A stretch of DNA of 64,000 nucleotides from Tubiluchus corallicola (lineage: Eukaryota; Animalia; Priapulida), in NCBI GenBank assembly GCA_030141605.1, contig JAQGDQ010000555.1, positions 62,001 to 126,000 of the forward strand, written 5' to 3'. The position numbers and the translations under genes were made by a program. The notes beneath the pieces were generated by a model. That model saw nothing but the letters and a program-made list of their open reading frames with translations. It was not told where the DNA came from and searched no databases. Positions 14,374-57,257 of the stretch are shown here, in pieces; position 1 is the stretch's first letter, and each line of letters opens with the position of its first letter.

Positions 14374-15447
14374 CTATTTATTTTTATAGTATTTCTGATA
14401 CTTACATTTGTGACAAGTCTTCTGATGTAATTTTAACCTCTGTGCTCTTGTATAAGCTGCAGCACATCCGGTACACTTGAAAGGTTTTTCACCTGTGTGA
14501 GACCTTATGTGCTGCTTCAAATGCGTTGAACGATGAAAGCCGGCATCACAAAGGTTACACTTAAACGCTTTTTCTTCTGAATGTATCTTTTGGTGTTCCT
14601 TCAAGTTGTCCGGTCGAACAAAGGTGAGTTCGCAAATCGTACATTGGAAAGGCCTTTCACCTGTATGCATTCTTGCATGCTTTCTCAAGTTACTGGAGCA
14701 AGCAAAAGCAGCACCACAGTACTGACACATAAAAGGCTTTTCCCCTGCATGAGTGTTTAAATGTTCTTTCAGATGAGCTGCGCGACCAAAAGCAGCATCA
14801 CACTCGGTACATTTGTATGGTTTTTCTCCTGTGTGAGTTCTTATGTGTTTTGTCAAGTTGCTTGAACAAGTAAAACCAAAAGAGCAGTACTGACACACAT
14901 AAGGTTTTTCACCTGCGTGGATTCTTTTATGTACTGTCAAACTTACTGCTTGAGTGAAACAAGCGTTACACTCGTCGCATTTGAAAGGCTTTTCTCCAGT
15001 ATGAATTTTGAAGTGTCTCTTTAAAGAAGAAGGTCTGGGGAAGACAGCATCACATATATAACACTGATAAACTTTTTCAACTAACTGAGTTAGTATTCCA
15101 GGATTATATCTCACATCATTCGAATAACCAAAAATTTCATTCATATTTGTGCGTAAAGCACCTTGTCCGGTATTTGCTGGCAGTTCATTCGGTATTTTCA
15201 GGTTTGCTCCTTGCTCACTGTTCCAATCACTTCCGTGATCTTCCGAAACATCTTGTTTTACTACATCATCATGTTCTGTATCTGTAAGTGGTCTGTTAGA
15301 TATGTCTGGACTTGTTGGTTGATCATTGTTCCAATGATTCTTGTAATCTTCTAAAGTATCATCAAGTACACTATCAACATGTGACGTTTCATCACTTTCT
15401 GTTGGTTCAGTTTTTATTACAAAATCAGGCTGTTCATCGCTGTCCAT
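14374..15447 (-). CDS. C2H2 zinc-finger protein, 8 tandem fingers, about 357 aa
   Basis: Eight CxxC-x12-H fingers with TGEKP/AGEKP linkers. Acceptor TTTTCAG at 15469-15475 makes ATG 15447 (MDSDEQ) the likely start rather than the ORF-track start at 15540. Acidic N-terminus with VIKTEP. Confidence 0.9.
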   Translation of the reverse strand: MDSDEQPDFVIKTEPTESDETSHVDSVLDDTLEDYKNHWNNDQPTSPDISNRPLTDTEHDDVVKQDVSEDHGSDWNSEQGANLKIPNELPANTGQGALRTNMNEIFGYSNDVRYNPGILTQLVEKVYQCYICDAVFPRPSSLKRHFKIHTGEKPFKCDECNACFTQAVSLTVHKRIHAGEKPYVCQYCSFGFTCSSNLTKHIRTHTGEKPYKCTECDAAFGRAAHLKEHLNTHAGEKPFMCQYCGAAFACSSNLRKHARMHTGERPFQCTICELTFVRPDNLKEHQKIHSEEKAFKCNLCDAGFHRSTHLKQHIRSHTGEKPFKCTGCAAAYTRAQRLKLHQKTCHKCKYQKYYKNK

Positions 15448-19179: not shown

Positions 19180-20873
19180 TTCAAGATTCAAGATTCAAGA
19201 GTTTTATTCATTTTCCACATTGCATCATTACAATTAGCATTAAAATACAGATAATTTTCCATTTGAGTAAATATAAATATAAATATGAATAAATGCAATA
19301 TTATTAAGAAATTTCATAATGCGGGATATACATGTGCAAATTTCATTACAGAATAATTTTTTGATGCATACAGTTTGAGCCTAAAAGCATAGCTTGACAG
19401 GCCAAACTGTATGTGGAAATCTTAAAAAAAATGGGGGGGGAGTAGTGAATGAAAGATGAAATGGAGCGAGAAACTAAGAAAAACTGTGATCATGGTTACA
19501 AAGTGTTCAGTATCCTGTTAAACATAGTCACGTTATATTAAGATTACTGTAGCAAAAAATGCAGGTTATTACCATTATCAAATTGTGTTACTCTTCAATA
19601 CTTTTGAAATATTTCTTTTCTGACGGTTTTTTTAAAAGTTAAAAGGGAGTGACTACATTTCGAATTGCGGCTTAGTCTGTTCCATAGGACTGGCCCCATA
19701 TAGCTGATGAAGTGTTTCGCCATATTTGTTCTACAACGTCTTGGTATATATTCATTATGTCTGGTATTGTATTTTTTTACATTTATCTTGACTGGATTTT
19801 CAAAAAAAGTTGGAAATAAGTTGTTGTTGGTTCTATACATGTATATACATCCATTAAAATTAATAACATCATCCAGAAGTAATATTTGACATTGCTTAAA
19901 ATGTGTAGTAGTAATTGTGCTCCTTTTGTCTAGTTTGAAGATGACACGTAAAAATTTTCGTTGTAAAACTCTTAAGCATTCTAAATTTGTAGTATAAGTA
20001 AAGCCCCATAATGTTGTGCAGTAATTTAAATATGATAATATTAAACTGTTGTATAATGTTAGAAGATGTTCGGTGTTCAGAAAGTTTTTAATATATGAGA
20101 TGATACCTATATTTTTTGATATTTTTAATCTGATCATGAATATATGTGGTCGCCAGTCTAAATGCTCATTCAGTATTAATCCCAGAAATTTCAGTTCTTT
20201 TACACGTGTAATTCTTTTATGGTCTATTATTAAATCGTGGTTCGCCTGAATTGGTTTATTTCGGGATCTAAACAGAATGTATTTTGTTTTTGATGAATTT
20301 AGTGAAAGTTTATTTGTTTTGAACCATATTGCTAGATCATGTAGAACTGTATTTATGTAGTCAATATTGGTTTCTATTTTATGAAAGCTAAAAAAAATGC
20401 TTGTATCATCAGCAAACTGAAATAAATTGTGATTTTTAACACAACATTTGATGTCATTAATATAAATTAGAAAAAGTAGTGGCCCGAGGACTGAGCCTTG
20501 GGGCATGCCACATTTGATTGTTGTTACATCTGAAAAAGCGTTATTATATTTTACTGTCTGAGTGCGCCCTGTTAAATAATTCTTTAGCCACATATGAGGC
20601 AAACCTCTGATACCGTAATAGTACAACTTATTTAGCAGAATGTCATGATTTACTGCATCAAATGCTTTTGATAGGTCGCAAAATACTCCGTAGGATGTGC
20701 CATTTTTTTCAACAGTATTAATGATATTTTCTATAATTTTTCTTAAGGCCATTTCAGTGGAGCTACCTTTTCTGAAACCAAATTGTTTATTACTCAGAAT
20801 TCTTTTTTTTATTAAATAATGAGATAACTGATTGTAAAAAACTTTTTCTAATATTTTTGATATAAAAGTACTT
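19180..20873 (-). mobile_element. 5'-truncated CR1/L2-group LINE with RT ORF (19595-20752 and further upstream) and (TCTTGAA)3 tail
   Basis: RT motifs QFGFRKG, DLSKAFD, GMPQGSVLGPLLFLIYIND and FADDT; 3' UTR ends in three TTCAAGA copies at 19180-19200. Confidence 0.92.
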
Positions 20874-21945
20874 CTATATGTAACCTGGGTGTGAGTCTCT
20901 TCTAGAAGGACATATCTCCTATTTGCTAGTGCTTTCCTTCTAGATAATTTTCAGAAGGCGTCGGTGCGACATGGTATGGTAAACGGACATTTTATTATTA
21001 TTATTATTTACTAATTTCTAACGAGTGGCTTCGCTTGTAAGTGCAACAGTTTGAAATTATTTTACAACGCACATATAACTTACATAACTTTCCCTTAATG
21101 TAAACAATCTAGATATAACGCTTACCCACGAAGCTGGAAATGAAAAGAATATATGATGTTAGATATCAAATCCATTTCCTGGTGGCAACAATGCGAGAAT
21201 TAATCCGCAATCTTATCAGTTATGGTTGCTTGCTTTCAGAAATACAGATCCGTACAATTCCTACTTTTTAATGTAAAGGCGGATACTTACTTCTATGCGA
21301 TGCTTTCACACAATATCAGAGCAGTGTTACGCACTTTAGTTAGTTCCATACTAGTTGGTGATTAAATCCATTTTTGGTACTTCAGGTAATAGCAAGACGG
21401 GAAATCATAAAAAGTATTACGAACGGAAAAATACAGAAAGCAATATGGCTTTCAAGACTGTTTCACGACTTCGAAGAGTGAAACTATGCGAACCTTATCG
21501 TATGTTGATGAAAATTATTATTATCATAACTTAAAGGAAACAGGCAATCATACAACATCGTACCAATTACCGCTGTATCACCTGTCAGCCAATTGTAAAT
21601 CATGTTTGAGAAGGAACCACAACCCAGTTTAACAGGTTGCAGAGTATTCATCTAGATTGACGGGAATTTGTGTCACACACTCTCTCTCTCCCTTTGTTTT
21701 TAATAAATGCAATATTATGCATGCTGTTTTTACAAAGATATTATTAATTTTTACTATGCAAATAAATCTAGTCTAATGTTAATGACTTTTGCCTGTGTTT
21801 TGGCTAACTGTAATAATTACAAAGGTTTTGTTTCAGTTATGTGTTATTTCAAACATTCTGCTTTGTTTGCTAAAATATTGAAGAATATAGCACATGCGTA
21901 TTATCATAATGATTTGTGAGCCTCCTATAATATTGTAACGGATCC

Positions 21946-22650
21946 AATTACAATTACAATTGTACAATTACAATTACAATTACAATTACAATTACAATTA
22001 CAATTGTACAATTACAATTACAATTACAATTACAATTACAATTACAATTGTACAATTACAATTACAATTACAATTACAATTACAATTACAAATTACAATT
22101 ACAATTACAATTACAATTACAATTACAATTACAATTACAATTGTACAATTACAATTACAATTACAATTACAATTGTACAATTACAATTACAATTACAATT
22201 ACAATTACAATTACAATTACAATTACAATTACAATTACAATTACAATTACAATTACAATTACAATTACAATTACAATTACAATTACAATTACAATTACAA
22301 TTACAATTACAATTACAATTACAATTACAATTACAATTACAATTACAATTACAATTACAATTACAATTACAATTACAATTACAATTACAATTACAATTAC
22401 AATTACAATTACAATTACAATTACAATTACAATTACAATTACAATTACAATTATAATTGTACAATTACAATTACAATTATAATTATACAATTATAATTAT
22501 ACAATTACAATTACAATTGTACAAGTACAATTACATTTACAATTACAATTATAATTATACAATTACAATTACAATTGTACAAGTACAATTACATTTACAA
22601 TTACAATTATACAATTGCTACAATTCTACAATTACAATTACAATTACAAT
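21946..22650. repeat. (ACAATT)n hexamer microsatellite with a degenerate right end
   Basis: Directly visible; source of the YN/TI/QL ORFs. Confidence 0.97.
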
Positions 22651-42700: not shown

Positions 42701-42730
42701 ATGGCGATATAATTGATATAATTATAATAT

Positions 42731-43795
42731 TTGTATGTCAGAATAGCTACCTCCTATATTTTTGTTCTTCTAAACCATGAGGTTGTATGTCAGAATGGCT
42801 GTCTTCTACATTTTAGTTCTTCTAAACCACGAGGTTGTATGTCAGAATGGCTACCTTCTACATTTTAGTTCTTCTAAACCATGAGGTTGTATGTCAGAAT
42901 GGCTGTCTTCTACATTTAGTTCTTCTAAACCACGAGGTTGTATGTCAGAATGGCTACCTTCTACATTTTAGTTCTTCTAAACCATGAGGTTGTATGTCAG
43001 AATGGCTACCTCCTATATTTTTGTTCTTCTAAACCACGAGGTTGTATGTCAGAATGGCTGTCTTCTACATTTTAGTTCTTCTAAACCACGAGGTTGTATG
43101 TCAGAATGGCTACCTTCTACATTTTAGTTCTTCTGAACCATGAGGTTGTATGTCAGAATGGCTGTCTTCTACATTTTAGTTCTTCTAAACCACGAGGCTG
43201 TATGTCAGAATGGCTACCTTCTACATTTTAGTTCTTCTAAACCACGAGGTTGTATGTCAGAATGGCTGTCTTCTACATTTTAGTTCTTCTAAACCATGAG
43301 GTTGTATGTCAGAATGGCTGTCTTCTACATTTTAGTTCTTCTAAACCACGAGGTTGTATGTCAGAATGGCTACCTTCTACATTTTAGTTCTTCAAAACCA
43401 CGAGGTTGTATGTCAGAATGGCTATCTTCTACATTTTAGTTCTTCTAAACCACGAGGTTGTGTGTCAGAATGGCTGTCTTCTACATTTTAGTTCTGCTAA
43501 ACCACGAGGTTGTGTGTCAGAATGGCTACCTTCTACACTTTAGTTCTTCAAAACCACGAGGTTGTATGTCAGAATGGCTGTCTTCTACATTTTAGTTCTT
43601 CTAAACCACGAGGTTGTATGTCAGAATGGCTACCTTCTACATTTTAGTTCTTCAAAACCACGAGGTTGTATGTCAGAATGGCTATCTTCTACATTTTAGT
43701 TCTTCTAAACCACGAGGTTGTGTGTCAGAATGGCTGTCTTCTACATTTTAGTTCTGCTAAACCACGAGGTTGTGTGTCAGAATGGCTACCTTCTA
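42731..43795. repeat. 52-bp satellite array, left arm, about 20 copies
   Basis: Unit GTTGTATGTCAGAATGGCTACCTTCTACATTTTAGTTCTTCTAAACCACGAG; the array ends at CCTTCTA. Confidence 0.96.
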
Positions 43796-43934
43796 TTTTA
43801 TTATTATTTATTTATTGACCATGGTCAAAGATATATACAAAAAGTCATAAGAATCGTTTCGAGATAGTTGCAACATTTAAGAAATTTGGGCTGATCATAG
43901 TCCATAGATCACTCAATGTATGGTGTAGTAACAA

Positions 43935-45434
43935 TTAGAGACCAAAAATGGCTAGAGCATCGTGTACAAAATTACAAATATCAGCGGGATTTCCGCTGAA
44001 GAAAGTCACTAAATCATCAAATATTAAATCGGAATTGTTTCTTAAGATACGTGTTTCAGGGCATTCACATATTACGTGCAGTTCTGTTTGGATTTGTCCA
44101 CATGAACAGAGTCTTCGCTCTCTTTCAATACGGGACCAACGACCAGTTTCTATGGCAAGGTTGTGTGAGGAAAGTCTGAGCCTTGACGTTTTTATCCGTT
44201 TCAGTTCATTAACATTGTCACAGTAAATTCGATGGATAGAGAGTTCAGGGTTTAGTTGTAAGTATGTGACAAATTTCGTACGGTCAGAAGCGCGGGTCCT
44301 ATCTTTGATTCTATTCAGGTCATCATCGATAAAATCACCACGGTATCCAGTTATATTACGCAAATATCGAGCACATGGGGTGTTTGACTCGCGACACAAA
44401 TTGTAAACAATCATAAACGGATCATCAGGAATATTCACTCTTGAGCGAACACTCTTATTGAAAAAGCGAGATTGGGTGTCCTTCACAAAACCATTCAGGG
44501 AGGGAAGGCCCAACTCTATGAGACACAAATCATTAGCAGTTGTACGTCGCACACCGAGTAAACATTTGATAACACTAATATACATCCCTTGAATAGGATT
44601 AAGGTCATTGAATAGCCAAGACTCACATCCGTAAGTAATTGCAGCAAGTAGCGCGGCATTTAAAACTAACTTCTTAACTGCGAAAGGATAAGCTGAATTC
44701 TTAGAAATAAATGACACGAACTTCAGTACGTGACAATATTTGTCTTCGCAGTGTTTTTCCAGAGCGGGTTTAAATTTTCCTGTTGAGCTAAAGACAGCAC
44801 CGAGGTAAACGTAATAGTCACAGTGATTAACAGTAAGGGGGTTCACTACGAGGTCCAGACGATCAACAGCATCGCCATTAATAACCATAAATTTAGTCTT
44901 TTTTAAGTTCACCTTCATACCGGATTGATCACAGAACTCAATAAGGATACTGAGTTTTTGAATAATACCTTCTCTAGATGTTGACAATAAGATTGTATCA
45001 TCCATCAACATCAAACAGTGTAAATTTCCTAGGAAACCATCGAGACCACATCGAGACTTTAATTCACGAATAAGAGGGTTAATATACAGTGTGAAGAGGA
45101 AACAGGATGACGGAGAACCCTGCTTCACACCTAATGTAACACCAATAACGGCAGCACCAAGGACCAGCTGCGTATTCACATACATGGCAGCAAGAGCAGA
45201 AAGCATCACAAGACGACAGCCAAGAGCTCTCAAGGCCCTAATCAAACCAGAACGTGGAACTCTATCGTAAGCTTTCGAGAAGTCTACGAAAACGATATAT
45301 AATTTCCTCTTTTTAAACAGTGCATAGTCCATTAATAGTCTTAGAGTCACAATCCACTCAATGCAGGATCTACCCTTTTGGGCGCCAGCCTGCTCCCTAT
45401 CGGGTTTGAACCACATCTCTAAACGAAAAAACAA
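43935..45434 (-). CDS. Non-LTR retrotransposon RT and C-terminal domain, 5'-truncated with no endonuclease, copy 1
   Basis: EQAG, FVDFSKAYDRV, GVKQG, LMDDT, YLG and C-terminal HNLAIETGRW..C.C..E.H...C motifs; the frame opens without an ATG. Confidence 0.93.
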   Translation of the reverse strand: MFFRLEMWFKPDREQAGAQKGRSCIEWIVTLRLLMDYALFKKRKLYIVFVDFSKAYDRVPRSGLIRALRALGCRLVMLSALAAMYVNTQLVLGAAVIGVTLGVKQGSPSSCFLFTLYINPLIRELKSRCGLDGFLGNLHCLMLMDDTILLSTSREGIIQKLSILIEFCDQSGMKVNLKKTKFMVINGDAVDRLDLVVNPLTVNHCDYYVYLGAVFSSTGKFKPALEKHCEDKYCHVLKFVSFISKNSAYPFAVKKLVLNAALLAAITYGCESWLFNDLNPIQGMYISVIKCLLGVRRTTANDLCLIELGLPSLNGFVKDTQSRFFNKSVRSRVNIPDDPFMIVYNLCRESNTPCARYLRNITGYRGDFIDDDLNRIKDRTRASDRTKFVTYLQLNPELSIHRIYCDNVNELKRIKTSRLRLSSHNLAIETGRWSRIERERRLCSCGQIQTELHVICECPETRILRNNSDLIFDDLVTFFSGNPADICNFVHDALAIFGL

Positions 45435-45454
45435 GTTATAGTGTTTTGATATAA

Positions 45455-46966
45455 TTATAGTTCATCTTCTGATCTTTTGGCACATTCTTTCATTTCTATA
45501 CTTTCTCCTTGAACTGCGTTTTTGTTTTTAATCTTGAATCTGATCAACTTGTACCCAATCCAAATGAGCAAAGAATTCACCTCAATACACGTGATTACCG
45601 TCATTAGCCATAGCCAATCTTTCGCAGAAGAGTAATCTTCATACCAGGCTAATGGTTCCATTTCGTGGTGAGAAATAAGTAGTGCATGAGTTTTGTTAAT
45701 TAAAGCATTTATCTCGTCGGTATAAGTAGTTAGATTATGGCTCTCCAATTTAGGTATCCAACTTTTCACCCGGTGGAGAGAATCACTACATTTGAGAAAA
45801 TATCCAGGGAGATGATACTCATTAGCTTTCTTGCATGTTAGCACAAGACTAGTGTTCTTGGGAATAATCTTTTCTGATGCTCCTGTATATCTTGATACTG
45901 TTCTTAATGAATAACTAGCCTGTCTTTGAACTAGCCACCCACCCATTAATGTAACTACTCCCCAACTTTCTGGCGACCTTTCATATTTGATAGATTGGTC
46001 AAACGGTTGGGTTTCCAAATAAGTTGGGCATACAATTACATTAAGATCTTGGCAAGATCCAGGAGGAATAATTTTAATTTCATTTATTCCCAAAATCATG
46101 TTGAATGCGTTTCCGTGGACAACCCAAGTTCCTCCTTTGACGATTGGCACATTCTGTGTCTTTACATGTACTTTGCCAGGCACTTGGATGATTTCTCTGA
46201 CATTGATTAACATCCACAGTCTTCGTGGCTCAGATTTAATGACTATAGCCCGGCTAGCTCCATAGGATAGCGGGATGCTGTTCTTTTGGTCAGACATGAG
46301 AGAATGAAACTGGGTGGGACTGATCAGTAGGGGGTCTATTTTTGAAGAGGTGATAGATTGTAGGCCATGTCCATATCGGATAGAATTTAAATAGTCGTGA
46401 AGTTTCTTCATGTCGTTAGCGTGTGCCATCATCAGGTTATGTACATTAGCATCTAACTTGCCAACAATTCTCTCTAACTCTTCTAGATCGTGGCCTAGGA
46501 TACCTATTTCTTTATTAGCTATTTCCAGTTCATGTGCTATTATCCCTTGATTGTTTCTTAATTCCCCCATTTTCTTATTTAATGAATTTATTTCTGCCCT
46601 GTTTGTAGCGCCTAAGGCTAAAGCAGCAGTCGCCTCTGCCATAGCTGCGCTGGACATAATTAATCCGAGAAATCGTTTTTTCCTGTTATTATGGGTTGAA
46701 GAATTATCTTTTTCTCGAAACTGAAAGAGATCGTAATGAATATTCCAGGCCCGGGACATATCGACTCTAACAACTTTGAAAGATTGTGCCACTTGATACC
46801 CAATGGGTTTTGGTTCTGTAATTATAATGCCATAAGACGCCAAGGCATCTTGATGTTTGTAGATTATATCTTGCGATAATTGTGGAATAATACTATTTAC
46901 ACTTATTATGGTTCCATAAGTAACAGCTGAAAGAACAAGAAGGATTGAAAGAGTATAATGACCCAT
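45455..46966 (-). CDS. Class I viral fusion glycoprotein (paramyxo/pneumo F-like), 503 aa, endogenous viral element copy 1
   Basis: Signal peptide, furin site RKKR followed by hydrophobic FLGLIMSSAAMAEATAALALG, long heptad repeat, Cys-containing head, N-glycosylation sequons, C-terminal TM and short tail; intronless. Confidence 0.85.
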   Translation of the reverse strand: MGHYTLSILLVLSAVTYGTIISVNSIIPQLSQDIIYKHQDALASYGIIITEPKPIGYQVAQSFKVVRVDMSRAWNIHYDLFQFREKDNSSTHNNRKKRFLGLIMSSAAMAEATAALALGATNRAEINSLNKKMGELRNNQGIIAHELEIANKEIGILGHDLEELERIVGKLDANVHNLMMAHANDMKKLHDYLNSIRYGHGLQSITSSKIDPLLISPTQFHSLMSDQKNSIPLSYGASRAIVIKSEPRRLWMLINVREIIQVPGKVHVKTQNVPIVKGGTWVVHGNAFNMILGINEIKIIPPGSCQDLNVIVCPTYLETQPFDQSIKYERSPESWGVVTLMGGWLVQRQASYSLRTVSRYTGASEKIIPKNTSLVLTCKKANEYHLPGYFLKCSDSLHRVKSWIPKLESHNLTTYTDEINALINKTHALLISHHEMEPLAWYEDYSSAKDWLWLMTVITCIEVNSLLIWIGYKLIRFKIKNKNAVQGESIEMKECAKRSEDEL

Positions 46967-46971
46967 TTTGA

Positions 46972-47495
46972 CTTCTACATTTTAGTTCTTCAAAACCACG
47001 AGGTTGTATGTCAGAATGGCTATCTTCTACATTTTAGTTCTTCTAAACCACGAGGTTGTATGTCAGAATGGCTACCTCCTATATTTTTGTTCTTCAAAAC
47101 CATGAGGTTGTATGTCAGAATGGCTACCTTCTACATTTTAGTTCTTCTAAACCACGAGGTTGTATGTCAGAATGGCTATCTTCTACATTTTAGTTCTTCT
47201 AAACCACGAGGTTGTATGTCAGAATGGCTATCTTCTACATTTTAGTTCTTCTAAACCACGAGGTTGTATGTCAGAATGGCTCTTCTACATTTTAGTTCTG
47301 CTAAACCACGAGGTTGTATGTCAGAATGGCTATCTTCTACATTTTAGTTCTTCAAAACCACGAGGTTGTATGTCAGAATGGCTATCTTCTACATTTTAGT
47401 TCTTCTAAACCACGAGGTTGTGTGTCAGAATGGCTGTCTTCTACATTTTAGTTCTGCTAAACCACGAGGTTGTGTGTCAGAATGGCTACCTTCTA
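46972..47495. repeat. 52-bp satellite spacer 1 (10 units)
   Basis: Same unit; 524 bp = 10x52 + 6-bp TSD - a 2-bp deletion. Confidence 0.95.
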
Positions 47496-47634
47496 TTTTA
47501 TTATTATTTATTTATTGACCATGGTCAAAGATATATACAAAAAGTCATAAGAATCGTTTCGAGATAGTTGCAACATTTAAGAAATTTGGGCTGATCATAG
47601 TCCATAGATCACTCAATGTATGGTGTAGTAACAA

Positions 47635-49134
47635 TTAGAGACCAAAAATGGCTAGAGCATCGTGTACAAAATTACAAATATCAGCGGGATTTCCGCTGAA
47701 GAAAGTCACTAAATCATCAAATATTAAATCGGAATTGTTTCTTAAGATACGTGTTTCAGGGCATTCACATATTACGTGCAGTTCTGTTTGGATTTGTCCA
47801 CATGAACAGAGTCTTCGCTCTCTTTCAATACGGGACCAACGACCGGTTTCTATGGCAAGGTTGTGTGAGGAAAGTCTGAGCCTTGACGTTTTTATCCGTT
47901 TCAGTTCATTAACATTGTCACAGTAAATTCGATGGATAGAGAGTTCAGGGTTTAGTTGTAAGTATGTGACAAATTTCGTACGGTCAGAAGCGCGGGTCCT
48001 ATCTTTGATTCTATTCAGGTCATCATCGATAAAATCACCACGGTATCCAGTTATATTACGCAAATATCGAGCACATGGGGTGTTTGACTCGCGACACAAA
48101 TTGTAAACAATCATAAACGGATCATCAGGAATATTCACTCTTGAGCGAACAATCTTATTGAAAAAGCGAGATTGGGTGTCCTTCACAAAACCATTCAGGG
48201 AGGAAAGGCCCAACTCTATGAGACACAAATCATTAGCAGTTGTACGTCGCACACCGAGTAAACATTTGATAACACTAATATACATCCCTTGAATAGGATT
48301 AAGGTCATTGAATAGCCAAGACTCACATCCGTAAGTAATTGCAGCAAGTAGCGCGGCATTTAAAACTAACTTCTTAACTGCGAAAGGATAAGCTGAATTC
48401 TTAGAAATAAATGACACGAACTTCAGTACGTGACAATATTTGTCTTCGCAGTGTTTTTCCAGAGCGGGTTTAAATTTTCCTGTTGAGCTAAAGACAGCAC
48501 CGAGGTAAACGTAATAGTCACAGTGATTAACAGTAAGGGGGTTCACTACGAGGTCCAGACGATCAACAGCATCGCCATTAATAACCATAAATTTAGTCTT
48601 TTTTAAGTTCACCTTCATACCGGATTGATCACAGAACTCAATAAGGATACTGAGTTTTTGAATAATACCTTCTCTAGATGTTGACAATAAGATTGTATCA
48701 TCCATCAACATCAAACAGTGTAAATTTCCTAGGAAACCATCGAGACCACATCTAGACTTTAATTCACGAATAAGAGGGTTAATATACAGTGTGAAGAGGA
48801 AACAGGATGACGGAGAACCCTGCTTCACACCTAATGTAACACCAATAACGGCAGCACCAAGGACCAGCTGCGTATTCACATACATGGCAGCAAGAGCAGA
48901 AAGCATCACAAGACGACAGCCAAGAGCTCTCAAGGCCCTAATCAAACCAGAACGTGGAACTCTATCGTAAGCTTTCGAGAAGTCTACGAAAACGATATAT
49001 AATTTCCTCTTTTTAAACAGTGCATAGTCCATTAATAGTCTTAGAGTCACAATCCACTCAATGCAGGATCTACCCTTTTGGGCGCCAGCCTGCTCCCTAT
49101 CGGGTTTGAACCACATCTCTAAACGAAAAAACAA
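47635..49134 (-). CDS. 5'-truncated LINE RT, copy 2 (insert 47496-50671)
   Basis: Differs from copy 1 by two amino acids; offset exactly 3700 bp. Confidence 0.93.
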   Translation of the reverse strand: MFFRLEMWFKPDREQAGAQKGRSCIEWIVTLRLLMDYALFKKRKLYIVFVDFSKAYDRVPRSGLIRALRALGCRLVMLSALAAMYVNTQLVLGAAVIGVTLGVKQGSPSSCFLFTLYINPLIRELKSRCGLDGFLGNLHCLMLMDDTILLSTSREGIIQKLSILIEFCDQSGMKVNLKKTKFMVINGDAVDRLDLVVNPLTVNHCDYYVYLGAVFSSTGKFKPALEKHCEDKYCHVLKFVSFISKNSAYPFAVKKLVLNAALLAAITYGCESWLFNDLNPIQGMYISVIKCLLGVRRTTANDLCLIELGLSSLNGFVKDTQSRFFNKIVRSRVNIPDDPFMIVYNLCRESNTPCARYLRNITGYRGDFIDDDLNRIKDRTRASDRTKFVTYLQLNPELSIHRIYCDNVNELKRIKTSRLRLSSHNLAIETGRWSRIERERRLCSCGQIQTELHVICECPETRILRNNSDLIFDDLVTFFSGNPADICNFVHDALAIFGL

Positions 49135-49154: not shown

Positions 49155-50666
49155 TTATAGTTCATCTTCTGATCTTTTGGCACATTCTTTCATTTCTATA
49201 CTTTCTCCTTGAACTGCGTTTTTGTTTTTAATCTTGAATCTGATCAACTTGTACCCAATCCAAATGAGCAAAGAATTCACCTCAATACACGTGATTACCG
49301 TCATTAGCCATAGCCAATCTTTCGCAGAAGAGTAATCTTCATACCAGGCTAATGGTTCCATTTCGTGGTGAGAAATAAGTAGTGCATGAGTTTTGTTAAT
49401 TAAAGCATTTATCTCGTCGGTATAAGTAGTTAGATTATGGCTCTCCAATTTAGGTATCCAACTTTTCACCCGGTGGAGAGAATCACTACATTTGAGAAAA
49501 TATCCAGGGAGATGATACTCATTAGCTTTCTTGCATGTTAGCACAAGACTAGTGTTCTTGGGAATAATCTTTTCTGATGCTCCTGTATATCTTGATACTG
49601 TTCTTAATGAATAACTAGCCTGTCTTTGAACTAGCCACCCACCCATTAATGTAACTACTCCCCAACTTTCTGGCGACCTTTCATATTTGATAGATTGGTC
49701 AAACGGTTGGGTTTCCAAATAAGTTGGGCATACAATTACATTAAGATCTTGGCAAGATCCAGGAGGAATAATTTTAATTTCATTTATTCCCAAAATCATG
49801 TTGAATGCGTTTCCGTGGACAACCCAAGTTCCTCCTTTGACGATTGGCACATTCTGTGTCTTTACATGTACTTTGCCAGGCACTTGGATGATTTCTCTGA
49901 CATTGATTAACATCCACAGTCTTCGTGGCTCAGATTTAATGACTATAGCCCGGCTAGCTCCATAGGATAGCGGGATGCTGTTCTTTTGGTCAGACATGAG
50001 AGAATGAAACTGGGTGGGACTGATCAGTAGGGGGTCTATTTTTGAAGAGGTGATAGATTGTAGGCCATGTCCATATCGGATAGAATTTAAATAGTCGTGA
50101 AGTTTCTTCATGTCGTTAGCGTGTGCCATCATCAGGTTATGTACATTAGCATCTAACTTGCCAACAATTCTCTCTAACTCTTCTAGATCGTGGCCTAGGA
50201 TACCTATTTCTTTATTAGCTATTTCCAGTTCATGTGCTATTATCCCTTGATTGTTTCTTAATTCCCCCATTTTCTTATTTAATGAATTTATTTCTGCCCT
50301 GTTTGTAGCGCCTAAGGCTAAAGCAGCAGTCGCCTCTGCCATAGCTGCGCTGGACATAATTAATCCGAGAAATCGTTTTTTCCTGTTATTATGGGTTGAA
50401 GAATTATCTTTTTCTCGAAACTGAAAGAGATCGTAATGAATATTCCAGGCCCGGGACATATCGACTCTAACAACTTTGAAAGATTGTGCCACTTGATACC
50501 CAATGGGTTTTGGTTCTGTAATTATAATGCCATAAGACGCCAAGGCATCTTGATGTTTGTAGATTATATCTTGCGATAATTGTGGAATAATACTATTTAC
50601 ACTTATTATGGTTCCATAAGTAACAGCTGAAAGAACAAGAAGGATTGAAAGAGTATAATGACCCAT
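49155..50666 (-). CDS. Viral F-like fusion glycoprotein, copy 2
   Basis: Protein identical to copy 1. Confidence 0.85.
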   Translation of the reverse strand: MGHYTLSILLVLSAVTYGTIISVNSIIPQLSQDIIYKHQDALASYGIIITEPKPIGYQVAQSFKVVRVDMSRAWNIHYDLFQFREKDNSSTHNNRKKRFLGLIMSSAAMAEATAALALGATNRAEINSLNKKMGELRNNQGIIAHELEIANKEIGILGHDLEELERIVGKLDANVHNLMMAHANDMKKLHDYLNSIRYGHGLQSITSSKIDPLLISPTQFHSLMSDQKNSIPLSYGASRAIVIKSEPRRLWMLINVREIIQVPGKVHVKTQNVPIVKGGTWVVHGNAFNMILGINEIKIIPPGSCQDLNVIVCPTYLETQPFDQSIKYERSPESWGVVTLMGGWLVQRQASYSLRTVSRYTGASEKIIPKNTSLVLTCKKANEYHLPGYFLKCSDSLHRVKSWIPKLESHNLTTYTDEINALINKTHALLISHHEMEPLAWYEDYSSAKDWLWLMTVITCIEVNSLLIWIGYKLIRFKIKNKNAVQGESIEMKECAKRSEDEL

Positions 50667-50671
50667 TTTGA

Positions 50672-51195
50672 CTTCTACATTTTAGTTCTTCAAAACCACG
50701 AGGTTGTATGTCAGAATGGCTATCTTCTACATTTTAGTTCTTCTAAACCACGAGGTTGTATGTCAGAATGGCTACCTCCTATATTTTTGTTCTTCAAAAC
50801 CATGAGGTTGTATGTCAGAATGGCTACCTTCTACATTTTAGTTCTTCTAAACCACGAGGTTGTATGTCAGAATGGCTATCTTCTACATTTTAGTTCTTCT
50901 AAACCACGAGGTTGTATGTCAGAATGGCTATCTTCTACATTTTAGTTCTTCTAAACCACGAGGTTGTATGTCAGAATGGCTCTTCTACATTTTAGTTCTG
51001 CTAAACCACGAGGTTGTATGTCAGAATGGCTATCTTCTACATTTTAGTTCTTCAAAACCACGAGGTTGTATGTCAGAATGGCTATCTTCTACATTTTAGT
51101 TCTTCTAAACCACGAGGTTGTGTGTCAGAATGGCTGTCTTCTACATTTTAGTTCTGCTAAACCACGAGGTTGTGTGTCAGAATGGCTACCTTCTA
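50672..51195. repeat. 52-bp satellite spacer 2 (10 units)
   Basis: Same variant order as spacer 1. Confidence 0.95.
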
Positions 51196-51334
51196 TTTTA
51201 TTATTATTTATTTATTGACCATGGTCAAAGATATATACAAAAAGTCATAAGAATCGTTTCGAGATAGCTGCAACATTTAAGAAATTTGGGCTGATCATAG
51301 TCCATAGATCACTCAATGTATGGTGTAGTAACAA

Positions 51335-52834
51335 TTAGAGACCAAAAATGGCTAGAGCATCGTGTACAAAATTACAAATATCAGCGGGATTTCCGCTGAA
51401 GAAAGTCACTAAATCATCAAATATTAAATCGGAATTGTTTCTTAAGATACGTGTTTCAGGGCATTCACATATTACGTGCAGTTCTGTTTGGATTTGTCCA
51501 CATGAACAGAGTCTTCGCTCTCTTTCAATACGGGACCAACGACCGGTTTCTATGGCAAGGTTGTGTGAGGAAAGTCTGAGCCTTGACGTTTTTATCCGTT
51601 TCAGTTCATTAACATTGTCACAGTAAATTCGATGGATAGAGAGTTCAGGGTTTAGTTGTAAGTATGTGACAAATTTCGTACGGTCAGAAGCGCGGGTCCT
51701 ATCTTTGATTCTATTCAGGTCATCATCGATAAAATCACCACGGTATCCAGTTATATTACGCAAATATCGAGCACATGGGGTGTTTGACTCGCGACACAAA
51801 TTGTAAACAATCATAAACGGATCATCAGGAATATTCACTCTTGAGCGAACAATCTTATTGAAAAAGCGAGATTGGGTGTCCTTCACAAAACCATTCAGGG
51901 AGGGAAGGCCCAACTCTATGAGACACAAATCATTAGCAGTTGTACGTCGCACACCGAGTAAACATTTGATAACACTAATATACATCCCTTGAATAGGATT
52001 AAGGTCATTGAATAGCCAAGACTCACATCCGTAAGTAATTGCAGCAAGTAGCGCGGCATTTAAAACTAACTTCTTAACTGCGAAAGGATAAGCTGAATTC
52101 TTAGAAATAAATGACACGAACTTCAGTACGTGACAATATTTGTCTTCGCAGTGTTTTTCCAGAGCGGGTTTAAATTTTCCTGTTGAGCTAAAGACAGCAC
52201 CGAGGTAAACGTAATAGTCACAGTGATTAACAGTAAGGGGGTTCACTACGAGGTCCAGACGATCAACAGCATCGCCATTAATAACCATAAATTTAGTCTT
52301 TTTTAAGTTCACCTTCATACCGGATTGATCACAGAACTCAATAAGGATACTGAGTTTTTGAATAATACCTTCTCTAGATGTTGACAATAAGATTGTATCA
52401 TCCATCAACATCAAACAGTGTAAATTTCCTAGGAAACCATCGAGACCACATCTAGACTTTAATTCACGAATAAGAGGGTTAATATACAGTGTGAAGAGGA
52501 AACAGGATGACGGAGAACCCTGCTTCACACCTAATGTAACACCAATAACGGCAGCACCAAGGACCAGCTGCGTATTCACATACATGGCAGCAAGAGCAGA
52601 AAGCATCACAAGACGACAGCCAAGAGCTCTCAAGGCCCTAATCAAACCAGAACGTGGAACTCTATCGTAAGCTTTCGAGAAGTCTACGAAAACGATATAT
52701 AATTTCCTCTTTTTAAACAGTGCATAGTCCATTAATAGTCTTAGAGTCACAATCCACTCAATGCAGGATCTACCCTTTTGGGCGCCAGCCTGCTCCCTAT
52801 CGGGTTTGAACCACATCTCTAAACGAAAAAACAA
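51335..52834 (-). CDS. 5'-truncated LINE RT, copy 3 (insert 51196-54371)
   Basis: Near-identical to copies 1 and 2. Confidence 0.93.
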   Translation of the reverse strand: MFFRLEMWFKPDREQAGAQKGRSCIEWIVTLRLLMDYALFKKRKLYIVFVDFSKAYDRVPRSGLIRALRALGCRLVMLSALAAMYVNTQLVLGAAVIGVTLGVKQGSPSSCFLFTLYINPLIRELKSRCGLDGFLGNLHCLMLMDDTILLSTSREGIIQKLSILIEFCDQSGMKVNLKKTKFMVINGDAVDRLDLVVNPLTVNHCDYYVYLGAVFSSTGKFKPALEKHCEDKYCHVLKFVSFISKNSAYPFAVKKLVLNAALLAAITYGCESWLFNDLNPIQGMYISVIKCLLGVRRTTANDLCLIELGLPSLNGFVKDTQSRFFNKIVRSRVNIPDDPFMIVYNLCRESNTPCARYLRNITGYRGDFIDDDLNRIKDRTRASDRTKFVTYLQLNPELSIHRIYCDNVNELKRIKTSRLRLSSHNLAIETGRWSRIERERRLCSCGQIQTELHVICECPETRILRNNSDLIFDDLVTFFSGNPADICNFVHDALAIFGL

Positions 52835-52854: not shown

Positions 52855-54366
52855 TTATAGTTCATCTTCTGATCTTTTGGCACATTCTTTCATTTCTATA
52901 CTTTCTCCTTGAACTGCGTTTTTGTTTTTAATCTTGAATCTGATCAACTTGTACCCAATCCAAATGAGCAAAGAATTCACCTCAATACACGTGATTACCG
53001 TCATTAGCCATAGCCAATCTTTCGCAGAAGAGTAATCTTCATACCAGGCTAATGGTTCCATTTCGTGGTGAGAAATAAGTAGTGCATGAGTTTTGTTAAT
53101 TAAAGCATTTATCTCGTCGGTATAAGTAGTTAGATTATGGCTCTCCAATTTAGGTATCCAACTTTTCACCCGGTGGAGAGAATCACTACATTTGAGAAAA
53201 TATCCAGGGAGATGATACTCATTAGCTTTCTTGCATGTTAGCACAAGACTAGTGTTCTTGGGAATAATCTTTTCTGATGCTCCTGTATATCTTGATACTG
53301 TTCTTAATGAATAACTAGCCTGTCTTTGAACTAGCCACCCACCCATTAATGTAACTACTCCCCAACTTTCTGGCGACCTTTCATATTTGATAGATTGGTC
53401 AAACGGTTGGGTTTCCAAATAAGTTGGGCATACAATTACATTAAGATCTTGGCAAGATCCAGGAGGAATAATTTTAATTTCATTTATTCCCAAAATCATG
53501 TTGAATGCGTTTCCGTGGACAACCCAAGTTCCTCCTTTGACGATTGGCACATTCTGTGTCTTTACATGTACTTTGCCAGGCACTTGGATGATTTCTCTGA
53601 CATTGATTAACATCCACAGTCTTCGTGGCTCAGATTTAATGACTATAGCCCGGCTAGCTCCATAGGATAGCGGGATGCTGTTCTTTTGGTCAGACATGAG
53701 AGAATGAAACTGGGTGGGACTGATCAGTAGGGGGTCTATTTTTGAAGAGGTGATAGATTGTAGGCCATGTCCATATCGGATAGAATTTAAATAGTCGTGA
53801 AGTTTCTTCATGTCGTTAGCGTGTGCCATCATCAGGTTATGTACATTAGCATCTAACTTGCCAACAATTCTCTCTAACTCTTCTAGATCGTGGCCTAGGA
53901 TACCTATTTCTTTATTAGCTATTTCCAGTTCATGTGCTATTATCCCTTGATTGTTTCTTAAGTCCCCCATTTTCTTATTTAATGAATTTATTTCTGCCCT
54001 GTTTGTAGCGCCTAAGGCTAAAGCAGCAGTCGCCTCTGCCATAGCTGCGCTGGACATAATTAATCCGAGAAATCGTTTTTTCCTGTTATTATGGGTTGAA
54101 GAATTATCTTTTTCTCGAAACTGAATGAGATCGTAATGAATATTCCAGGCCCGGGACATATCGACTCTAACAACTTTGAAAGATTGTGCCACTTGATACC
54201 CAATGGGTTTTGGTTCTGTAATTATAATGCCATAAGACGCCAAGGCATCTTGATGTTTGTAGATTATATCTTGCGATAATTGTGGAATAATACTATTTAC
54301 ACTTATTATGGTTCCATAAGTAACAGCTGAAAGAACAAGAAGGATTGAAAGAGTATAATGACCCAT
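52855..54366 (-). CDS. Viral F-like fusion glycoprotein, copy 3
   Basis: Two substitutions relative to copies 1 and 2 (YDLF>YDLI, MGEL>MGDL). Confidence 0.85.
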   Translation of the reverse strand: MGHYTLSILLVLSAVTYGTIISVNSIIPQLSQDIIYKHQDALASYGIIITEPKPIGYQVAQSFKVVRVDMSRAWNIHYDLIQFREKDNSSTHNNRKKRFLGLIMSSAAMAEATAALALGATNRAEINSLNKKMGDLRNNQGIIAHELEIANKEIGILGHDLEELERIVGKLDANVHNLMMAHANDMKKLHDYLNSIRYGHGLQSITSSKIDPLLISPTQFHSLMSDQKNSIPLSYGASRAIVIKSEPRRLWMLINVREIIQVPGKVHVKTQNVPIVKGGTWVVHGNAFNMILGINEIKIIPPGSCQDLNVIVCPTYLETQPFDQSIKYERSPESWGVVTLMGGWLVQRQASYSLRTVSRYTGASEKIIPKNTSLVLTCKKANEYHLPGYFLKCSDSLHRVKSWIPKLESHNLTTYTDEINALINKTHALLISHHEMEPLAWYEDYSSAKDWLWLMTVITCIEVNSLLIWIGYKLIRFKIKNKNAVQGESIEMKECAKRSEDEL

Positions 54367-54371
54367 TTTGA

Positions 54372-54739
54372 CTTCTACATTTTAGTTCTTCAAAACCACG
54401 AGGTTGTATGTCAGAATGGCTATCTTCTACATTTTAGTTCTTCTAAACCACGAGGTTGTATGTCAGAATGGCTACCTCCTATATTTTTGTTCTTCAAAAC
54501 CATGAGGTTGTATGTCAGAATGGCTACCTTCTACATTTTAGTTCTTCTAAACCACGAGGTTGTATGTCAGAATGGCTATCTTCTACATTTTAGTTCTTCT
54601 AAACCACGAGGTTGTATGTCAGAATGGCTATCTTCTACATTTTAGTTCTTCTAAACCACGAGGTTGTATGTCAGAATGGCTCTTCTACATTTTAGTTCTG
54701 CTAAACCACGAGGTTGTATGTCAGAATGGCTACCTTCTA
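54372..54739. repeat. 52-bp satellite spacer 3 (7 units), ending at CCTTCTA
   Basis: 368 bp = 7x52 + 6 - 2. Confidence 0.95.
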
Positions 54740-54745
54740 TGCAAT

Positions 54746-55813
54746 TTATGCAATTTTGAAATTGGTCGTGGTTGTTTGGAATTCATCATCACTGTCTTCG
54801 ATATACTTGTTTCCTACTGTGTGTCTGGTTACTTGATCCCTTTGAAAGTTTGCTCTTTCTATGGAGAGGTTTTCCATTGCCTGTCTTACATCTTCAGAGC
54901 CCTCATTTCTCGCCGCTGTAGCGGCTTCTCTTCTGATGATTTTTCCTAGCTGTTTCGCGAATTCGTCGATTGTTGGGGAAACATCAGGCTTTTTATATTG
55001 CCAAACACTGTATCGAGGGTCGTTTGTGTTATCCTTATCGGAAATGATGTGCAATAATACTGTTGTGAGTACTCTGTTATTGTTAGTACTTATGTTGGTG
55101 AATGCATTTTGGTTAAAGTTTTTGGCGTACAAATAGGATTTGTCGGGTCTCCCAACACAAGTTTGCCAGAACCTTTGGAGCCGGAGCAACTCTTTTATAG
55201 TCCATGAGCACCCTATTTTCTTTAACAACTCATTTCTGTCCAGTTTTGTAGACTCTGTGGCTTGTGCTAACAATTGGGGAAGTGTAAGTGAGGCCCACGT
55301 TAGGTGTCTCATTACAGCAAAGTTTACATACCGATAGAGTTCTTCTCCCCGACCAGTTATCCTTCCGCTCCTTACACAAAGCCCAAACGTCATAAGCGCT
55401 GTTGCGCAGACCTCCGGACGTGAAAACACTGTATAGTAAGCATTCCATAGTGACTCGTTGACTTTGAGTCCTAGTGGCCTATAATTCCACATCATTGAAT
55501 TCTCAGTTTCTTCACTCAGTACTTTGTTTCTTACTTGTTTCGATTTGCCTGCCGCTCGAGTGAGAACCATTACAAGAAAACATATTGAGTCTAATTCCCA
55601 TTCGTAGATGTCGGTAGCTGCCGTTTCAAAATAACTGTCGACTTTTTCCCACACCTCAATGATGTCGTTGGTCATGACATCTGGTGATCGTTGAGGAAGT
55701 TTAGATAGTTCATGGAGTAATTTGCCTGTGTCACCATCTGATCCGGAGGTTCCAGGCTCTAGATCTTCTCCCTTTGATCCAGCATTCAATTTGGCATAGC
55801 TGCCCAAAGTCAT
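54746..55813 (-). CDS. Putative mononegavirus (rhabdo-like) nucleoprotein, about 355 aa, endogenous viral element
   Basis: Intronless, helical-looking protein from ATG 55813 (MTLGSY). SYLYAKNFNQNAFTNISTNNNRVLTTVL resembles the YAR..D..F..L....N motif of plant/invertebrate rhabdovirus-type N proteins; acidic tail EDSDDEF. Confidence 0.65.
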   Translation of the reverse strand: MTLGSYAKLNAGSKGEDLEPGTSGSDGDTGKLLHELSKLPQRSPDVMTNDIIEVWEKVDSYFETAATDIYEWELDSICFLVMVLTRAAGKSKQVRNKVLSEETENSMMWNYRPLGLKVNESLWNAYYTVFSRPEVCATALMTFGLCVRSGRITGRGEELYRYVNFAVMRHLTWASLTLPQLLAQATESTKLDRNELLKKIGCSWTIKELLRLQRFWQTCVGRPDKSYLYAKNFNQNAFTNISTNNNRVLTTVLLHIISDKDNTNDPRYSVWQYKKPDVSPTIDEFAKQLGKIIRREAATAARNEGSEDVRQAMENLSIERANFQRDQVTRHTVGNKYIEDSDDEFQTTTTNFKIA

Positions 55814-56070
55814 AGTTTTGTGTTGGAGCGGAAAGTCTTGCGAGAACTCATCACACAAATTATTACCAGGTGTTACACATTTTGGATCACGTACAGTATT
55901 ACCAGATGTTACACATTTTTTGCAAAAGACAAATTTACAATTATATGTAATAGTAAAACATATGTAACGAGCTACAAATTGGATTAGTACTATACAAGGA
56001 GAATGCATTACAGGATAAGATACATATTCACAATTATACGATAATAAAAATATATAAGGTAAGATTAGGT

Positions 56071-57257
56071 AGACATCAAACATTCGAGTTCGCCATTCTA
56101 CTGGTGTTTGCTAAAAGAAATTATTGAGTTTACTAAGAGGTTACTTTTTTATCTCACTAGTACACATTAGGGGTAAACATCAAACATTCCAGTTCGCCAT
56201 TCTACTGGTCTTTGCTAAAAGAAATTATTGAGTTTACTAAGGGGTTACTTTTTTATCTCATTAGTACACACTAGGGGTAAACATCAAACATTCGAGTTCG
56301 CCATTCTACTGGTGTTTGCTAAAAGAAATTATTGAATTATTAATGATTAGTTTTTATCAGCCGTGCTTTTGCTTAAGTCTCAACCTGGTGGAGTGACTCA
56401 AATCAAGCACAGTGTTCATGTTTACTGTCTAAAATATCGAAAATGAATTGAAAAACATGATTATTTTTCATATACACTTTTATACATAATTGTCAGATAT
56501 ATTTAAAATAAAATGGGGAAATGATGTTCAAAAACTTGCGCAACAGCTTGTTTTAAAATGCTGAAATTAATAAATAAAAACAATTTTTAATGACTGTTAG
56601 CTATGAGCTTATAGACTTTTGCGTCTAATTGTTTTAATCGCTCAATTAGCTTATCTATTAGATAAGCAGTTAACTCATTGTTGTGTATCAAATAAGAAAT
56701 CAAATCTTCGATAAACTGCACTTGTTCTTCCGTTAGTTAAATTTTCCGTGTAACTGCACACACATTAAAGATATTAAAATTTAGCTTACTTCGTTCGTAG
56801 AACGTTTTTCTCCTCCATTTTGTGGTTTAACATTGTACTTGAATTTTGGAGGAGAATATGCAGGTGGCGGTACTATATTAATTCGCCGTGGTATCATTAT
56901 ACGTTTCTTTCCTCTCTCTAAATAAAAAAATCGCACTTTTCTTTACTTGTGTCGCATGAAAACTAATTGAATGTCGCGTAGGGTGACGTCATAGAACCCT
57001 CGGCTGTTGCTCAGGACCAATCAGAGTTCGTAGCGTCACTCCCAACTTTTGCGTTATTATGCTTCCGGTTGCTATAGTAACCATTGTAGGTAAATTTGCC
57101 CTCCTGGTAAATCCTGTGAAATAAGACGAACAAAAAATCAAGTTTATTTTTGGTTACTTTGATTGAGTTTTAACGAACTTAATGCTGTGGAAATATAGTT
57201 CAAAAGCTGAATCTGACAGTGATAGTTTTTATTAAAATTCGATAAGCTTTCACACTA
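56071..57257. repeat. Locally duplicated block, copy A (contains an internal ~104-bp triplet at 56071-56335)
   Basis: Aligns by eye to 59040-60098, including TGACGTCA and CCAATCA motifs. Confidence 0.85.

Follow-up and report, generated by a model that had tools for sequence, protein, structure and literature searches.

Three intact F-like genes joined to a truncated LINE in the priapulid Tubiluchus corallicola: a probable young endogenous fossil of a negative-strand RNA virus

Introduction

Glycoproteins of Chuviridae reportedly occur in BEL/Pao elements, that is, as virus-type fusogens linked to the reverse transcriptase (RT) of a retroelement. For viral integrations in Aedes mosquitoes (NIRVS), template switching by a retrotransposon RT has been proposed (PMC5497376). 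Among chu-like viruses, that of the Tasmanian devil (TDCV) is described with the gene order L-N-X-GP, the glycoprotein (GP) being last and followed by a 50-nt 3' UTR (10.1101/2024.11.25.625296; PMC10630069), and that of Ciona with a glycoprotein termed metapneumo-like and a bornavirus-like N (10.1101/2024.12.15.628590). Open-access titles and abstract openings, searched for chimeras of LINE and virus and for F proteins of class I in Jingchuvirales, returned no matching arrangement, which is not proof of absence.

We analysed a stretch of 64,000 nucleotides (hereafter, the window) of the T. corallicola contig JAQGDQ010000555.1, which contains three copies of an ORF for an F-like protein (F), one ORF for a nucleoprotein-like protein (N), arrays of a 52-bp unit and the 3' half of a LINE. 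The locus, made up of N, a 52-bp array and three units of F, truncated LINE and array, is probably the young endogenous remnant of a negative-strand RNA virus not yet described, likely written into the germ line by the RT of a host LINE and likely multiplied by unequal crossing-over.

Results

Organization of the locus

Read along the minus strand, the features were ordered as N, array (7 units), F, LINE half, array (10 units), F, LINE half, array (10 units), F, LINE half and array (20.5 units) (Table 1). The F-like ORF recurred at a spacing of 3700 bp (n = 3). Copies 1 and 2 showed 0 differences over 1512 nt, and copy 3 differed from them at 2 nt, both amino-acid changing; at these two sites all the depth of the contigs listed carried the letter of copies 1 and 2. 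N was on the same strand as F, upstream of it across the one array of copy 3 (A3), which began 6 nt from the N stop and ended 5 nt from the F ATG. A sequence-only reading had described three copies of F without stop or frameshift and a satellite directly upstream; the frames were open at all three coordinates, and the satellite there was the 52-bp array. Its triplication held as to the number of copies, but F is not repeated as a stand-alone gene, the repeated unit being array, F and truncated LINE together.

Elsewhere in the window we found an uninterrupted ORF with a C2H2 zinc-finger array (14374-15447, minus strand, 357 aa, about 8 fingers), two long simple repeats (1-1063, a 9-bp unit x119, and 21945-22650, CAATTA x113) and eleven minisatellites whose periods range from 24 to 112 bp (in 1633-37620 and 56068-56335). 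The zinc-finger gene, the LINEs and the minisatellites are in keeping with animal DNA.

Table 1. Coordinates of the features of the locus in the window.
Feature	Position	Strand	Remarks
14-bp exact match to F stop-codon region	42713..42726		just outside distal array end
52-bp array A0	42731..43795		20.5 units; distal end; CTTCTA at LINE tail
5'-truncated LINE copy 1	43796..45425	-	RVT_1 E 1e-26; open frame 43935-45416
29-nt stretch, F stop to LINE breakpoint	45426..45454	-	probable remnant of a viral 3' UTR; lacks poly-A
F-like ORF copy 1	45455..46966	-	503 aa; Pfam Fusion_gly below cut-off; Atlas F0 0.97
52-bp array A1	46972..47495		10 units; left part matches A3, right end matches A0
5'-truncated LINE copy 2	47496..49125	-	repeat of copy 1
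F-like ORF copy 2	49155..50666	-	identical to copy 1
52-bp array A2	50672..51195		10 units; unit order as A1
5'-truncated LINE copy 3	51196..52825	-	family contigs diverge at 52825
F-like ORF copy 3	52855..54366	-	2 nt different
52-bp array A3	54372..54739		7 units; between N stop and F start
N-like ORF	54746..55813	-	355 aa from ATG 55813; one copy in window; Pfam Rhabdo_ncap_2

Sequence features of the F protein

In 2000 shuffles, stop-free runs reached 144 codons at most, compared with the 503 codons of the F ORF, so that the ORF is not due to chance. Hydrophobic 19-mers were found at aa 3-28 (signal-like), aa 99-120 (Ala-rich) and aa 450-475 (TM). The second of these directly follows a furin-type site, RKKR, at aa 95-98 (window 46673-46684), exactly where the sequence-only reading had placed it. 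In the region of HR1 (aa 120-200), LIVMF occupied 70% of the a/d positions in the best register. The membrane-proximal heptad (HR2, aa 400-447) was weak, with 36% hydrophobic a/d positions, and so was the TM stretch, with E and N inside. As a sequence pattern, F thus combines a signal peptide, a multibasic site with an immediate hydrophobic fusion peptide, HR1 and a C-terminal TM, as in class I proteins, and at this level of sequence pattern the earlier statement that all functional modules are present stands. Cysteines were present only at positions 305, 313, 378, 393, 460 and 495, four of them in the ectodomain and none N-terminal of RKKR. In the F proteins of paramyxoviruses and pneumoviruses, a cysteine of F2 makes the F2-F1 disulfide; having no Cys before RKKR, F would form no disulfide of that kind.

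The Pfam model Fusion_gly (PF00523) matched F at the cleavage site (E 0.0053) with 15.5 bits, and did not reach the gathering cut-off of 29.8. In the ESM Atlas, the top clusters were Negarnaviricota F0 at 0.97 (13 out of the 30 hits belonged to that set), followed by mixed F0/Baculo_F clusters at 0.95-0.96 and then Gypsy env at 0.92, with a recognition value of 1757, which is below the level where high scores are strong. No relative of F was recovered by word search (0 out of 7995 candidates), among protein representatives (0 of 1.84 billion) or in viral and metagenome contigs, and the PDB search returned no F chain at E<=10. Two PDB rows for alphavirus E1 (E 1.4-2.1) were taken as chance. An AlphaFold2 single-sequence model of the ectodomain, made with no alignment, had a pLDDT of 33 and gave 0 Foldseek matches at E<=0.001, being too poor to inform.

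Sequence pattern, weak Pfam match and Atlas clusters agree with the earlier proposal of a viral protein with the class I layout of paramyxovirus and pneumovirus F. The F gene likely encodes a viral membrane-fusion protein of class I, F-like type; its sequence follows the plan of class I F proteins, yet stays outside PF00523 membership. In the virus, the protein would act as a furin-activated class I fusogen.

A nucleoprotein-like ORF upstream of F

We scanned 5 of the 22 window ORFs of >=100 aa with Pfam, and the N-like ORF (scanned as 54749-56110) passed the cut-off of Rhabdo_ncap_2 (PF03216; E 4e-6, 27 bits, cut-off 25), as a mononega-type nucleoprotein would. Beyond its ATG the N frame stayed open in the upstream direction, and another ATG, at 56083, fell within a 104-bp repeat. 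This minisatellite just beyond N has a period of 104 bp, twice that of the 52-bp unit, and only an 8-bp word in common with it. Relatives of N were found neither by word search (0 out of 7757 candidates) nor in viral or metagenome contigs, and the PDB gave nothing meaningful; the AlphaFold2 single-sequence model (pLDDT 35; 0 Foldseek matches at E<=0.001) was unusable. On a single Pfam match 2 bits above the cut-off, the ORF likely represents a viral nucleoprotein. There was no ORF of the size of an L polymerase in the 64-kb window, where the longest ORF had 503 aa. Order and family of such viruses are defined by the phylogeny of L. Since neither a polymerase gene nor, in the collections searched, any sequence relative of the two viral proteins was found, we assign no family.

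Upstream of N, about 190 bp (55814-56005) had low depth and contained a short internal duplication. Since multi-copy sequence begins near 56005, the viral 5' boundary is probably located in this interval.

The presence of N also bears on another possible origin of F, as the env gene of an errantivirus or BEL/Pao-type LTR retrotransposon that came to lie by chance beside an unrelated N fossil. F-type env proteins with furin site and fusion peptide are widespread in animals, according to PMC13524379, Gypsy/Baculo_F clusters appeared in the Atlas at 0.92-0.96, and the F lineages described below are multi-copy and apparently under constraint. We consider this origin very unlikely, given that no gag, LTR-type pol or LTR pair adjoins F, that N is its neighbour in the same orientation, with 6 nt between the N stop and the array, and that the top Atlas clusters were viral F0. 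In errantiviruses and BEL/Pao elements the env is set within gag-pol and LTRs, and the neighbours of F were a LINE RT and N; an F-type env, which the sequence-only reading had offered as an alternative, is accordingly disfavoured by the adjoining nucleoprotein-like ORF and non-LTR RT.

Presence and depth in sequencing runs

Four of the six runs listed, from two studies, contained the stretch; X1 may be from the source sample. In run X1, contigs of N had a depth of 205, those of F 865-977 and those of the LINE more than 4000; the corresponding values in run X3 were 10, 13-26 and 90-106. F depth in X1 was 4.2-4.8 times that of N, which is not a true copy number; depth is a rough sign that the tandem F copies are real. 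Contigs of X3 bridged the joint between N and array, showed the joint between LINE tail and array, and covered F. The locus is surrounded by host repeats and was present in more than one sample, as an endogenous sequence should be (X3 belongs to the second study, and its library kind is unrecorded). Run X5, of the same species label and another study, had next to none of the words of the stretch and no cover of F or N, which is no sign of absence.

The truncated LINE and its joint with F

The LINE half comprised the C-terminal half of an endonuclease-RT ORF, the 3' UTR and an (AATA/AAT)n tail with two AATAAA signals. Its relatives included 283 proteins at E<=1e-30 among those of 864-2465 aa, many with an endonuclease domain. 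In 30 out of 30 checked, the match corresponded to the C-terminal half of LINE ORFs of about 1000 aa, starting at residue 375-542. LINE contigs of X1 and X3 matched the window up to 52825 and then continued, translating like the LINE relatives, which sets the breakpoint 29 nt past the F stop and indicates that the family exists without F and is multi-copy. The 29-nt stretch was partly common to a divergent F lineage. The T-run at this joint was considered as a virus genome terminus and rejected, since the related F lineage has the same UTR start and then differs. One X1 contig covered the F-LINE joint, its 30 letters of LINE missing the bridging rule by one, and no X3 contig among the matches listed spanned it. 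Neither N nor F had a poly-A tail. Together, the 5' truncation, simple-repeat 3' tail and likely target-site duplication seen here are hallmarks of LINE insertion, although the 6-bp target-site duplication is less sure than usual because it is inside a repeat array.

The F-LINE unit might instead be a mobile envelope-carrying non-LTR element. F and RT share one orientation and end in the LINE tail with a likely 6-bp target-site duplication, and env capture is known for LTR elements (PMC13524379). We regard such mobility as extremely unlikely: endonuclease and promoter parts are both missing from the LINE half, the family contigs go on as ordinary LINE and not as F, and the depth of the LINE tail-array joint in X1 (920) was close to that of F (865-977) and far under that of the LINE family (over 4000), so that, with depth as a rough guide, no dispersed F-LINE copies are indicated.

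A second, unrelated LINE-type RT ORF was found at 19595-20752 (minus strand, 385 aa, RVT_1 E 1.8e-24), which was 21.5% identical to the RT linked to F.

The 52-bp arrays and the origin of the triplication

According to their variant units, arrays A1 and A2 consisted of the left part of A3 and the right end of A0 (one base apart in the crossover unit). The tandem copies therefore likely arose by unequal crossing-over, the internal arrays being recombinant between the two outer ones, and the triplication reads as a tandem duplication of the whole unit of array, F and LINE. The LINE part differed at 1-4 sites between copies. Joined across the F-LINE insert, the tail of A0 and the head of A3 restored a single normal unit, CTTCTA being present on both sides of the insert.

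An assembly artefact would also yield three near-identical copies, and it is compatible with the identity of F copies 1 and 2 and with the copy-3 variants being unseen among the contigs listed. It is nonetheless very improbable in view of the differences in the LINE part, the recombinant order of the arrays and the F depth of 4.2-4.8 times that of N in X1 (not a true copy number).

The arrays allow a second history, in which the 52-bp unit was the viral N-F intergenic region, expanded after integration, the LINE insertion duplicated array and F, and the distal F was then deleted. N ending at the same array register and the array ending 5 nt before the F ATG also fit such an expanded intergenic region; reduced to one unit, the array would leave a spacer of 69 nt from N stop to F ATG, and the N-side ends of A0 and A3 were alike. 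A 14-bp match to the end of F was found post hoc at the distal border (42713-42726), where 0 out of 3000 random 61-bp windows reached 12. This history remains a tentative one, on the whole unlikely, as it needs an extra deletion, the window holds 11 other minisatellites (4.8 kb) of such a size class, and A0 and A3 rebuild one clean unit around the insert. With it, the order of events would change, and the reading as a young viral fossil would stand.

Further F lineages

Other contigs of X1 and X3 were 82-87% identical to F and gapless, and X1 also had one at 91% (window 52856-54078). The sequence past the stop of these further F versions was not LINE. The depth of the second F lineage in X1 was 788-1403, compared with 205 for N. 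Of the 37 differences in 53314-53596, 34 were at the third codon position, 3 at the first and 0 at the second (P about 1e-13 against one third), as counted from 40 of the 104 difference rows (the other 3 being third, first, third), with positions and not synonymy scored. This bias shows what appears to be protein-level constraint between the F lineages. Most simply, it would go back to repeated capture of a replicating virus in different strains; conserved host or retroelement F genes would also produce it. The occurrence of two or three divergent F versions per run suggests repeated recent capture, and live virus may thus turn up in host RNA.

Age of the insertion and host use

The LINE half differed from the X3 family contigs at 8 sites in about 1625 nt (about 0.5%), and, without its endonuclease, it was unbroken over 493 codons. 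Because it is equally intact and this close to its family, youth can explain the intact F; the LINE fragment serves as an internal neutral control. A neutral F copy would stay stop-free at 0.5% divergence with a probability of 0.68, and stay open with one of 0.41 once an indel rate is assumed as well. Youth, and not use by the host, is probably what has kept F intact, and an intact triplicated fusogen need not mean domestication. Of the two options left by the sequence-only reading, a very recent insertion is thereby favoured. Retention for function or expression found no backing, given the equally unbroken LINE half, the upstream ATGs and the amino-acid changes between copies detailed here: 7-10 upstream ATGs preceded each F start, array-derived, nearly all of the form Met-stop and all closed before F, three AATAAA were present inside F, and both differences among the F copies were non-synonymous (n = 2, weak).

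That the host keeps and amplifies F as a working protein, be it a receptor blocker, a dominant-negative subunit or a cell-cell fusogen, is decidedly unlikely in our judgement. Every module is intact, the gene is present in a run of the second study, both F lineages exceed the N depth several times in X1, the third-position bias between lineages is strong and the LINE tail supplies AATAAA downstream. Intactness can, however, be explained by youth, as for the LINE half; both copy differences change amino acids, there are many upstream ATGs, and the public proteins searched contained no relative. In the host, F is probably poorly translated, and if it is used at all, a small-RNA template is the likeliest use. 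A stronger proposal, that the animal repeatedly captures whole F genes of an undescribed lineage with rhabdo-type N and paramyxo-type F by LINE template switching, amplifies them and uses them as working proteins or antiviral loci, is unlikely; if true, a class I fusogen of non-retroviral origin would be seen at the start of its domestication, in the manner of a syncytin or as a restriction factor.

Discussion

The young viral fossil that we favour could have formed in a few steps. The LINE RT would have been primed at a nick in the array and reverse-transcribed the 3' half of the LINE RNA, then switched to plus-sense viral RNA just past the F stop and copied it up to 5 nt before the ATG. The doubled CTTCTA would be the target-site duplication of this F-LINE insertion. 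Crossing-over between the flanking arrays, whose pattern is seen in the variant units, may then have produced the tandem copies, and the frames would still be open for want of elapsed time.

If so, the locus records a virus lineage without detectable F relative in 1.84 billion protein representatives, and its pairing of a rhabdovirus-type nucleoprotein with a paramyxovirus-type fusogen bears on the origin of class I F in negative-strand viruses. The junction of LINE and F, sharp to the base, illustrates cleanly and in a natural setting how RNA-virus genes are likely endogenised by a non-LTR element.

Compared with paramyxovirus and pneumovirus F0, F is similar in length and in the order of signal, furin site, fusion peptide, HR1 and TM, but differs in its PF00523 score (15.5 vs 29.8 bits), in the lack of a PDB F match at E<=10 and in having no Cys before RKKR. 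The TDCV has the nearest virus layout found, set beside this locus by its description; N upstream of a terminal glycoprotein and a short 3' UTR are common to both (10.1101/2024.11.25.625296), and no ORF of L size is present in the window. As described, its GP has about 741 codons and an extra ORF lies between N and GP (10.1101/2024.11.25.625296), whereas F has 503 aa. The N of the Ciona virus is described as bornavirus-like (10.1101/2024.12.15.628590), and the N of this locus matches a novirhabdovirus-type model.

Errantiviruses, Roo and lokiretroviruses likewise link a fusogen, their F-type env, to a retroelement RT (PMC13524379). They are described there as LTR elements or retroviruses, in contrast to the truncated LINE downstream of F, which gave no sign of joint mobility. 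The likeness to the Aedes NIRVS, as outlined in PMC5497376, is that of viral structural genes located beside a retroelement in a host genome, with duplications. The flanks are mainly Ty3/gypsy in that account (PMC5497376), and the partner here, a LINE, is of the non-LTR kind and its joint is sharp to the base; compared with the same account (PMC5497376), both viral ORFs are whole here and amplification likely proceeded via a minisatellite. The locus belongs to a kind already known, the non-retroviral EVEs, and its F-LINE composite is real, well preserved and probably recent.
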